Source: Delftia acidovorans NBRC 14950 (GTDB lineage Bacteria > Pseudomonadota > Gammaproteobacteria > Burkholderiales > Burkholderiaceae_C). From it: a stretch of 32,000 nt of DNA. Under the pieces are notes generated by a model, which saw only the letters and a list, made by a program, of their open reading frames with translations, made no database searches and was not told where the DNA came from. The translations under genes and the position numbers were made by a program. The stretch lies in contig NZ_BCZP01000007.1 in assembly GCF_001598795.1 (NCBI RefSeq), forward strand, positions 270,001 to 302,000, in the 5' to 3' direction. Positions 1 to 7,430 of the stretch are shown here, piece by piece (positions within the stretch are counted from its first letter, which is position 1; each line of letters begins with the position of its first letter).

Positions 1-188
1 ATGGACAAGGGCATGTCCTTGTCGATGACGAAGCTGGTGTCCACCACCTTGGCGTCCTCGCCAGCCCCCACCTTGCCGGCCAGTGCCGCTTTGGCAAGGC
101 CCGTGCCTATGGATGCAGCCACTTCGGCCACGGTGACCGGGCCGGGGTACTCACGTTGCGAACCATCGGGAAGCGTAATGTGGATCAT
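1..188 (-). CDS. thrS: threonine--tRNA ligase, first 62 codons only (gene runs off the left edge)
   Basis: Minus-strand translation from the ATG at 188-186 gives [40 protein letters not shown].... This is the conserved TGS-domain N-terminus of ThrRS (compare E. coli [14 protein letters not shown]...). AGGA lies 7 nt upstream. The ORF is absent from the supplied track because the window edge truncates it. Confidence 0.85.
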
Positions 189-227
189 GGGATTCCTAAA
201 ATATTTCTCAGGGGGCGCGCATCCCCC

Positions 228-259
228 AAAAGCAAAAAGCGCGGAGCCAGGTCCGCGCT
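228..259 (-). terminator. intrinsic terminator hairpin inside the thrS 5' leader (candidate attenuator 3:4 structure)
   Basis: The minus strand reads AGCGCGGA-CCUGGC-UCCGCGCU: a perfect 8-bp GC-rich stem (259-252 / 245-238) with a 6-nt loop, followed by UUUUUGCUUUU. It ends about 40 nt upstream of the thrS ATG. Confidence 0.7.
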
Positions 260-304
260 TTCTTGGGGTCGAGTGAATCTCGTGCAGGCGCGAACCGCCA
301 GCCG

Positions 305-352
305 CTAGCGGCCGGTGTACATCTCCGATGTAGTTCGCGGTGTCATAACCAT
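305..352 (-). promoter_or_regulatory. candidate thrS leader peptide ORF (15 codons, [15 protein letters not shown])
   Basis: Minus strand: ATG GTT ATG ACA CCG CGA ACT ACA TCG GAG ATG TAC ACC GGC CGC TAG. Four of the 15 codons are Thr, including a tandem ACT-ACA. GAAAGG lies 4 nt upstream of the first ATG. The ORF overlaps segment 1 of the alternative pairings described in the findings. Confidence 0.45.
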
Positions 353-414
353 GATGCCTTTCTCGCCCTTGTCAGTTGTTGTCAATTGAAAACTTCCGCC
401 ATTTTAACCCCAGC

Positions 415-453
415 AAAGAAAAAGCGCCCGAAGCACAAGGCCCCGGACGCTTT
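415..453 (-). terminator. rho-independent terminator of aceA
   Basis: Minus strand: GCGUCCGGGG...CUUCGGGCGC stem of about 10 bp (with G-U pairs), followed by UUUUUCUUU. It starts about 45 nt after the aceA stop. Confidence 0.7.
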
Positions 454-496
454 CTCACCCCTATCTACCTGAAGTTGCACTCACCGAAGCCGCGCT

Positions 497-1828
<1,332 letters not shown>

Positions 1829-7399: not shown

Positions 7400-7430
7400 A
7401 AAACTTTCCAATTTTTGAGGAATTCCCTGC

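Follow-up and report, generated by a model that had tools for sequence, protein, structure and literature searches.

How is threonyl-tRNA synthetase (ThrRS), an essential enzyme and the target of antibiotics such as borrelidin and related inhibitors, adjusted to the supply of charged tRNA-Thr in bacteria of the order Burkholderiales? To our knowledge, the control of its gene, thrS, is poorly charted outside the enteric bacteria, which use a protein operator, and the Firmicutes, which use a T-box. The question is posed by a stretch of 32,000 nt from Delftia acidovorans NBRC 14950 (hereafter the window, meaning the whole stretch of DNA that was analysed), in which a leader element occupies the minus strand between aceA and thrS; all features described below lie on that strand. 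Based on comparative and thermodynamic computation, we conclude that this element is probably a transcription attenuator of the leader-peptide type, in which a translating ribosome would gauge threonyl-tRNA and thereby set the expression of thrS. If true, it would represent a third solution to thrS control, a ribosome-read threonine sensor in an order that includes the Burkholderia group, Cupriavidus, Acidovorax, Comamonas, Janthinobacterium, and Massilia.

An earlier sequence-only reading of the window had proposed an attenuator of this type in front of thrS, and the computations reported here support that interpretation. Judged at the level of sequence, the leader carries every feature of a classical leader-peptide attenuator and appears to be a widely conserved new case of a well-known kind.

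A conserved threonine-rich leader ORF precedes thrS

The leader contains a short open reading frame (ORF) at 346-305, ATG ACA CCG CGA ACT ACA TCG GAG ATG TAC ACC GGC CGC TAG, which encodes 13 amino acids, with its start ATG at 346-344 and its stop TAG at 307-305. GAAAGG, a Shine-Dalgarno-like motif, lies 11 nt upstream of the start codon within a purine-rich 5' block (CAAGGGCGAGAAAGGCA, 371-355). Four codons specify Thr (ACA 343-341, ACT 334-332, ACA 331-329, and ACC 316-314), and the tandem pair at codons 5-6 (ACT ACA, 334-329) forms the proposed regulatory codons. The sequence-only reading had described this frame as a 15-codon ORF running from 352 to 305; its reading frame, its TAG, and its four Thr codons stand, while its start codon does not. 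The in-frame ATG at 352-350 is not conserved, the corresponding triplet in relatives being ATG, CTG, TTG, or a non-start codon, and the conserved peptide is thus the one of 13 residues that begins at 346.

A search with the ThrRS N-terminus yielded 80 loci, from Burkholderiales and a few Xanthomonadales, and in 55 of these 80 genomes the core ATGACACCGCGAAC is found upstream of thrS, mostly as an exact copy, where it opens an ORF of 9-27 codons with the pattern M-T-P-R-T-T/x-T/x. The core occurs in Comamonadaceae, Sphaerotilaceae, Oxalobacteraceae, and Burkholderiaceae, including the genera Acidovorax, Comamonas, Hydrogenophaga, Variovorax, Roseateles, Rubrivivax, Piscinibacter, and Methylibium, as well as Cupriavidus, Massilia, Janthinobacterium, Rugamonas and, in a variant form, Caballeronia. 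Relatives share one layout, in which (C/T)AAGAGCGAGAAAGGCA-N4-5-GGTT is followed by the core, a variable ORF tail, and AAGCGCGG-loop-CCGCGC-TTTTTT. The 5' block is nearly invariant across families, and so, almost, is a 40-nt block, AAGAGCGAGAAAGGCA-N4-5-GGTTATGACACCGCGAACT, including the third codon positions, which hold the rarest codons. A 21-mer from the element, GGTTATGACACCGCGAACTAC, occurs once in the window and in none of its shuffles.

The element is also specific to thrS. A metagenome scan with the 16-mer TTATGACACCGCGAAC returned 120 matches, 101 of which have thrS no more than 700 nt downstream. Contig ends cut a further 11; of these, two were inspected (L129 and L186), and both show the full set of leader features and, after it, a thrS start that is truncated. 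The remaining eight were rejected as chance matches: none has GG ahead of TTATG, the 5' block, or a terminator, and they lie inside unrelated, mostly low-G+C coding sequence. Every bona fide metagenome copy with enough flank therefore precedes thrS. Neither a second copy nor a complementary site was found in the window, and viral contigs held no copy.

The codon pattern of the ORF bears the mark of decoding. Unique ORFs numbered 151 in total, and the 53 of the genome set are free of the bias introduced by the 16-mer query. In the genome set, codon 2 is ACA in 52 of 53 ORFs and codon 5 specifies Thr in all 53; codon 6 does so in 40 (75%), written as ACA in 14, ACG in 12, ACC in 7, and ACT in 7, and codon 7 in 27 (51%). 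Counted from codon 6 to the end of the 151 ORFs, no residue is as common as Thr, which accounts for 20.8% in frame as against 2.2% and 4.0% when either of the other frames is read; over the whole leader peptide, its share is 29%. At least two consecutive Thr residues are present in 103 of the 151 peptides and three in 54; peptide length ranges from 9 to 27 residues with a mode of 13, and a leader carries 2-8 Thr codons within its 9-27 codons. The conservation of the short ORF and its Thr codons among relatives, which the sequence-only reading had put forward as a check, is thus accompanied by synonymous variation, since ACN codons vary at codons 6-7. This retention of "AC" with a varying third base points to selection on decoding by tRNA-Thr, a pattern that selection on the RNA sequence alone does not predict.

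Codons 2-5 (ACA CCG CGA ACT) behave differently, their third positions being fixed as well. ACA (5.4%), ACT (3.6%), and CGA (4.2%) are the rarest synonymous codons in the genes of the window, and the fixation of such codons implies that the RNA sequence itself is constrained, that rare codons are preferred, or both.

Mutually exclusive helices and a predicted intrinsic terminator in the leader

Four segments make up the pairing core of the leader. Segment 1 was first given as CCGCGAAC (340-333), and its pairing stretch, CGCGAACT (339-332), lies inside the ORF and has GGTTCGCG (296-289) as its partner. Segment 2, GGTTCGCGCC (296-287), begins at the 9th nt past the leader stop and is the partner common to segment 1, with which it would act as an anti-antiterminator, and to segment 3, with which it would form the antiterminator. 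Segment 3, AGCGCGGACC (259-250), and segment 4, TCCGCGCT (245-238), form the 5' and 3' sides of the terminator, and TTTTTGCTTTT follows from 238. The terminator hairpin, AGCGCGGA-CCTGGC-TCCGCGCT, thus spans 259-238, with T238 closing the stem; the U-rich tract past it, TTTTGCTTTT (237-228), was read directly from the sequence, and a premature 3' end would be expected there.

Re-reading of the minus strand bore out the coordinates and sequences that the sequence-only reading had assigned to the four segments, including the 9-nt distance of segment 2 from the stop, and also its three pairings. Helix 1:2, CGCGAACU:GGUUCGCG, has 7 Watson-Crick pairs and 1 G-U pair (-11.2 kcal/mol); helix 2:3, GGUUCGCGC:GCGCGGACC, has 8 Watson-Crick pairs and 1 G-U pair (-15.8 kcal/mol) and uses the 5' arm of the terminator; helix 3:4 has 8 perfect pairs, its hairpin reaching -13.7 kcal/mol. 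That layout was nonetheless incomplete, as two further elements had gone unseen. One is a stop-codon hairpin of 7 bp, CCGGCCG-CTAG-CGGCTGG (315-298), which appears in the minimum-energy fold with the TAG in its loop; the other is a helix that we call P0, described below. Against 200 dinucleotide shuffles, the 216-nt region as a whole folds better every time (z = -2.96); 1:2 and 3:4 are both part of its minimum-energy structure.

At the sequence level, the hairpin has the form of an intrinsic terminator in essentially all leaders, where GCGCGG...CCGCGC is joined to a T-run; the T-run past the hairpin is present in all relatives listed, and the stem pairs covary. A simple terminator scan of the window did not list the 259-238 hairpin, its only entries being a hairpin at 231-206 and the aceA terminator. 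The terminator lies 45-50 nt upstream of the thrS start codon.

Comparison among relatives supports the alternative helices. In group A, consisting of 26 Comamonadaceae-type leaders including that of the window, all 26 carry CGCGAAC in the ORF and GTTCGCGC 5-12 nt past the stop. RNAalifold on this group returned 1:2 (26 of 26), the stop-codon hairpin, and the terminator. Helix 1:2 is invariant within the group and hence uninformative there, while the innermost terminator pair covaries, as do three pairs of the stop-codon hairpin (CG/UG/UA, CG/GU, and GC/GU/AU). Across all 146 unique leaders, 72% have the start of the best contiguous complement of the terminator 5' arm at -6 to +12 nt relative to the stop codon, versus 30% expected for random placement, and a complementary contiguous run of at least 7 nt is present in 41% of leaders versus 15% of shuffles. 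Contiguous-run tests were used for this purpose instead of loop-permitting RNAduplex, which separated leaders poorly from shuffles.

Changes on both sides of the stems keep the pairing in 1:2, 2:3, and 3:4, a check that the sequence-only reading had named. Compensated variants of segment 1 include CGCGGAC with GTCCGC (L020) and CCGCGG with CCGCGG (L003 and L007); ACCGCTGACGT is matched by ACGTCCGTGGT in L080, where 10 of 11 positions pair by hand alignment and GACGTGC:GCACGTC forms a contiguous 7-bp run, and ACACCGCGA is matched by TTGCGGTGT in L057. In alignment A2, comprising 59 leaders with the four segments aligned ungapped and anchored on the GTTCGC-like motif of segment 2, the combination of 1:2 and 3:4 is 80% paired versus 30-47% with a slid partner, and 2:3 is 70% paired versus 17-44%. 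The outer pairs of 1:2 covary in A2, and in segment-3 column 44 a C-to-U change is accompanied by G-to-A changes in segment 2 (9 A-U) and in segment 4 (11 U-A), so that a single position covaries with both of its alternative partners. The covariation score of A2 exceeds 500 of 500 shuffles for both structures, and leaders with a GTGCGG arm tend to have CGCAC in segment 2 (Fisher p = 0.006), although the leaders are phylogenetically related, such that p-values overstate their independence, and the A2 anchor favours the 1:2 core. Mutually exclusive helices are thus present, with weaker support in Oxalobacteraceae and Cupriavidus.

The loops of the terminator take part in this pairing in some lineages. 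In Oxalobacteraceae and relatives, the loop CUAG(U) matches GCUAGUCG around the leader UAG stop, and in a group of leaders with peptides of the form MTPRTR..., the loop CUCG matches CGAG of segment 2, which indicates that the antiterminator there reaches into the terminator loop. These loops bear on another explanation, autoregulation by tRNA mimicry resembling that of the Escherichia coli thrS operator, in which ThrRS would modulate termination or translation by binding a hairpin that resembles an anticodon arm (the terminator loop, for instance), and the ORF would be incidental. Many terminator loops do read CU-N-GU (CUAGU 16, CUGGU 5, and CUCGU 5), like positions 32-36 of the tRNA-Thr anticodon loop, and the hairpin is kept in leaderless lineages. 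But the loops have 4-6 nt instead of 7 and are devoid of A37 and A38; CUAGC, CUCGA, and many unrelated loops occur too, and the window itself has CCUGGC, without GU. Pairing with segment 2 accounts for the identity of the loops, CUAG matching the region of the UAG stop and CUCG matching CGAG; AUGCGCG, the loop of the hairpin that adjoins the thrS ribosome-binding site, does not resemble that of tRNA-Thr; and mimicry leaves the frame-specific Thr enrichment and the synonymous variation unexplained. Autoregulation of this kind is accordingly very unlikely, and mimicry of the anticodon loop by the terminator loop (CU-N-GU) in particular was rejected, as that loop covaries with segment 2 and the window loop misfits.

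Helix P0 pairs the purine block that carries the Shine-Dalgarno-like motif with a tract just 5' of the terminator. Its mean duplex energy over the leaders is -13.3 kcal/mol versus -9.7 kcal/mol for composition-matched shuffles, with z below -2 in 37% of leaders. It is weak in the window, where GGGCGAG (368-362) in the 5' block pairs with CUCG-A-CCC (CTCGACCC, 273-266) at -11.1 versus -9.3 kcal/mol for shuffles, and strong and covarying in relatives such as L114, L039, L037, and L065; lineage-specific variants of the block are accompanied by matching tracts (L114 and L039 versus L031, L037, L063, and L065). P0 would close the leader ribosome-binding site once the distal leader exists, perhaps restricting sensing to the first ribosome.

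A ribosome on the Thr codons is predicted to shift the balance toward the antiterminator

Structures with 3:4 and structures with 2:3 were compared for the window transcript 394-238, masking a 28-nt ribosome footprint. With no ribosome, the 3:4 structure reaches -53.7 kcal/mol and the 2:3 structure -48.5 kcal/mol, an advantage of 5.2 kcal/mol for the terminator. When the A site is placed at codon 5, 6, or 7, these values become -39.6 to -40.0 and -39.0 to -39.3 kcal/mol, and the advantage falls to 0.6-1.0 kcal/mol; with the A site at UAG, where the first 4 nt of segment 2 are covered, they are -31.9 and -27.7 kcal/mol, and the advantage returns to 4.2 kcal/mol. Helix 2:3 would be able to form fully before RNA polymerase has made segment 4, and a stalled ribosome that leaves the two energies nearly equal should therefore favour read-through on kinetic grounds.

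The shift extends, in weaker form, to the family. Over 145 leaders, the mean fall in the terminator advantage is 1.1 kcal/mol between the ribosome-free and the stalled state and 1.3 kcal/mol between the stop-codon and the stalled state. A shift of 2 kcal/mol or more in the direction that the model predicts is seen in 39-48 of these leaders, 7-9 shift the opposite way, and shuffles average about 0. The comparison of alternative folds suggested by the sequence-only reading thus shows a footprint on the Thr codons shifting the energies in favour of the antiterminator, an effect that is strong in the window and modest over the family as a whole.

The same calculation addresses whether the logic could be reversed or non-specific, either because segment 1 (CCGCG) pairs with segment 3 (CGCGG) as the antiterminator, in which case stalling would favour termination, or because the ORF reports general translation capacity. 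CCGCG of segment 1 and CGCGG of segment 3 are both universal and complementary, a palindromic CGCG core is common to all four segments, and the invariant rare CGA codon could slow any ribosome. However, 1:3 has just 5 bp and never beats 3:4 or 2:3, and a footprint at codons 5-7 lowers the terminator advantage in the window and on average. As to a general sensor, the enrichment is for Thr in particular, and the element is confined to thrS. It is also general knowledge that known synthetase controls, namely T-box leaders and the pheST attenuator, raise expression when charging is low. We therefore regard a reversed or non-specific response as highly improbable.

Proposed mechanism of thrS attenuation

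The following scheme is what we infer for the attenuator, as regards its promoter, a translated ORF, termination inside the cell, and the way in which the system responds. Transcription would start a few bases downstream of the TAAAAT hexamer at 406-401, and a ribosome would load at GAAAGG/AUG(346) and translate MTPRTT.... When Thr-tRNA is plentiful, the ribosome is expected to pass the Thr codons and to reach or leave the UAG at 307-305, whereupon segments 1 (339-332) and 2 (296-289) could pair; alternatively, the first bases of segment 2 could lie under the ribosome at the stop codon. Segment 3 would then be free for segment 4, and the 259-238 hairpin with its U-run would terminate transcription near 230. 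When Thr-tRNA is scarce, the ribosome would pause with codons 5-7 (ACU ACA ...) in the A site, covering segment 1, such that segment 2 could pair with segment 3 once it is made (9 bp, -15.8 kcal/mol); the terminator would be blocked and RNA polymerase would enter thrS. Control probably extends to the downstream genes infC-rpmI-rplT-pheST.

Observations that weigh against the proposed attenuator

Besides the relatedness of the leaders and the anchoring of A2 noted above, several observations count against this mechanism. The median energy shift over the 145 leaders is just 0.4 kcal/mol, and energetic support is therefore uneven across lineages. In an equilibrium test of whether segment 3 is already paired in the nascent transcript, the effect is small (0.65 versus 0.56; 38 leaders against 11), and in the window the nascent-transcript pairing measure lies at 0.92-1.00 in every state; the comparison of energies with and without the terminator took the place of this test. 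Helix 2:3 is short and differently placed in Oxalobacteraceae and Cupriavidus. As for the peptide, 16 of the 151 have only the two fixed Thr residues, and the 10-residue MTPRTR... group is less Thr-rich. Some lineages of the Rhodoferax/Polaromonas type (L021, L026, L029, L048, L050, L064, and L078) have lost the ORF and keep the TAAAAT box and the GCGCGG...CCGCGC hairpin with its T-run immediately before thrS. Finally, the synonymous invariance of codons 2-5 and of the 5' block across the whole order exceeds what a leader peptide alone needs.

The loss of the ORF invites the suggestion that there is no regulation, the hairpin being a leaky or leftover terminator and the ORF a chance frame in a conserved 5' untranslated region. 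A hairpin without ORF in L021, L026, L064, and L078 would suit it, as would the deletion variant L022, but it does not account for a Thr signal confined to one frame, a start codon that is conserved, an ORF of bounded length, a stop codon adjoining segment 2, or the covariation in the alternative helices, and we consider it extremely improbable. The variant L022 itself looks like a deletion that fuses segment 1 to segment 4.

The excess of conservation raises a different possibility. Because the 40-nt block is invariant across the order, P0 would hide the leader ribosome-binding site, and the hairpin persists in ORF-less lineages, the terminated leader RNA might do more than attenuate, either acting in trans as a small RNA or being bound by a protein, and thrS control might integrate a second signal besides Thr-tRNA; we deem this unlikely. 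Put as a dual function, in which the attenuator stands and its terminated leader RNA of ~160 nt is also a stable trans-acting small RNA or is bound by a protein, the proposal would account for why the 5' block and the synonymous sites, including the rarest codons, are invariant throughout the order. A precedent exists in rnTrpL, the terminated trp attenuator RNA that acts in trans in Sinorhizobium (PMC6614838). On the other hand, overlapping constraints can explain the same invariance, as the ribosome-binding site, P0, and the CGCG-core chain of 1:2, 2:3, and 3:4 share the sequence and the chain is unable to change one segment at a time. Neither a target nor a binding partner has been identified, and the window, as stated, holds no second copy or complementary site; this dual function seems quite unlikely to us. 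The thrS leader attenuator, as we read it, offers a natural example of how a chain of mutually exclusive CGCG-core pairings can freeze a regulatory sequence over long evolutionary time.

Comparison with known control systems

The closest parallel is the pheST attenuator of E. coli (pheM), in which a synthetase operon is preceded by a short leader ORF rich in the cognate codon, an intrinsic terminator, and alternative pairings, and low charged tRNA leads to more synthetase. The thrS element has the same architecture and would follow the same logic, but would sense Thr instead of Phe and has no sequence relationship to it. Here, pheST lies downstream in the string thrS-infC-rpmI-rplT-pheS-pheT, which the thrS element heads; the string also encodes IF3, L35, L20, and PheRS.

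With the Thr leader of Enterobacteria (thrL, Rfam RF00506 Thr_leader), the element shares a leader peptide with Thr codons, a four-segment attenuator, and an intrinsic terminator. It differs in that thrL controls the biosynthesis genes thrABC and has Ile codons too, while here the regulated gene is the synthetase and the leader has 2-8 Thr codons. RF00506 gave no match at E <= 10 in window positions 1-700, and neither the window as a whole nor any of 9 related loci reached its gathering score.

Control of thrS in E. coli also resides in the 5' leader of the same gene, and there it consists of translational repression by ThrRS through anticodon-arm mimics by the ribosome-binding site, whereas the present leader has an ORF and a terminator instead. 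Operator stem-loops of the E. coli type (U33-N-G-U-A loop adjoining the thrS ribosome-binding site) are nowhere conserved among these leaders, and the terminator loops, of 4-6 nt, are heterogeneous. The T-box leader of Firmicutes thrS likewise acts by antitermination upstream of thrS in response to tRNA-Thr charging; unlike the leader-peptide element, it reads uncharged tRNA directly without a ribosome. T-box RF00230 had no match in window positions 1-700, in the whole window, or in the 9 related loci.

In Streptomyces lividans TK24, a short ORF upstream of thrS, also named thrL, was proposed as a Thr-dependent leader peptide from RNA sequencing of one strain (PMC8079986). Its peptide, MKRVRPFLETTPGFVPAR, has 2 Thr residues, the mRNA is leaderless, and no clear U-rich terminator was apparent to the authors (PMC8079986). 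This actinobacterial case resembles ours in that a short ORF before thrS is read as a Thr leader, but the peptide is unrelated, and the Burkholderiales element has a canonical terminator and order-wide comparative support.

In three Luteimonas-type Xanthomonadales (L053, L056, and L076), an unrelated Thr-rich mini-ORF (MDTTTAQR*, MSTTPI*) lies about 60-130 nt before thrS and is followed by a hairpin and a T-run. These three sequences may represent an independent or highly diverged Thr leader in Gammaproteobacteria.

No rival Rfam family is present at the locus, an Rfam scan being among the checks named by the sequence-only reading. Scans with Rfam, permissive over positions 1-700 and extended to the whole window and the 9 related loci, returned only tRNAs and a spurious ctRNA_p42d, and a tRNA scan of the window showed no tRNA gene within it. 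NCBIfam leader-peptide models gave no family at E <= 10 for a 26-amino-acid extended ORF or for the duplicated peptide, the native 13 amino acids being below the length limit. The element is absent from the Rfam 15 and NCBIfam models, and genome annotation consequently misses it at present; its strong conservation makes it easy to model.

The sequence-only reading had known of no report of such a leader for betaproteobacterial thrS, and the searchable literature contains no description of one either. An earlier in silico prediction is possible, as a 2010 survey by Lopatovskaya, Seliverstov, and Lyubetsky (Mol Biol 44:128; cited in PMC13434334), whose content could not be read, reportedly deals with attenuation of aminoacyl-tRNA synthesis operons and may hold it.

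Genomic context of the leader

The thrS start codon lies at 188-186, preceded by AGGAA, and the translated gene (188-1) extends beyond the window. Between the attenuator and the thrS ribosome-binding site, the terminator scan (231-206) and the fold locate a second hairpin, GGGGG-ATGCGCG-CCCCC (227-211; GGGGG-AUGCGCG-CCCCC in the RNA), with an A/U-rich tail to 201. This hairpin, too, had escaped the sequence-only reading. In group-A relatives, the corresponding position is occupied by a hairpin whose core is GCGCG. Once read-through has occurred, the second hairpin might pair with segment 4; alternatively, it might be a back-up terminator.

On the other side, aceA, encoding isocitrate lyase, has its stop codon at 499-497, and its intrinsic terminator, a hairpin with a U-run found in the terminator scan at about 455-413, marks the 5' boundary of the thrS control region. 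The match of this terminator (413-455) to ctRNA_p42d was rejected, with 26.7 bits against a gathering score of 50 (E = 0.0015), as a resemblance of terminator shape only.

Just inside that boundary, TAAAAT (406-401), a -10-like hexamer, is the candidate promoter of the leader and thrS. By eye, a TAnAAT-like hexamer occurs 14-30 nt 5' of the conserved block in most relatives without an upstream tRNA gene. A sigma-70 consensus scan gave no full match with a -35 box, and for that reason we infer the promoter position from the conserved hexamer only. The thrS leader is preceded by a tRNA gene in Oxalobacteraceae, Burkholderiaceae, and Xanthomonadales (L049, L057, L058, L062, L067, L068, L070, L031, L060, L053, and L056), and the anticodon of this tRNA reads, by eye, as Val (GAC). 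In Oxalobacteraceae, the tRNA ends just 9-30 nt 5' of the leader, without a separate -10-like box, which suggests that the tRNA and the thrS leader are co-transcribed and then processed.

Genomes encoding an identical AceA have the order aceA, a 308-nt gap, thrS, infC, rpmI, rplT, pheS, and pheT, and their aceA-thrS spacer is 99.4% identical to that of the window. Two genomes with identical AceA (L202 and L203, around 7415-7420) diverge exactly between the aceA terminator and TTAAAAT (window about 407-409). The islands at this aceA 3' junction carry DUF2130, SIR2_2, and a DUF87/HerA-like protein in one genome and a DNA methylase, HATPase_c_3, Z1, and DUF4420 in the other, and the spot 3' of the aceA terminator looks like an integration hotspot for defence-type islands.

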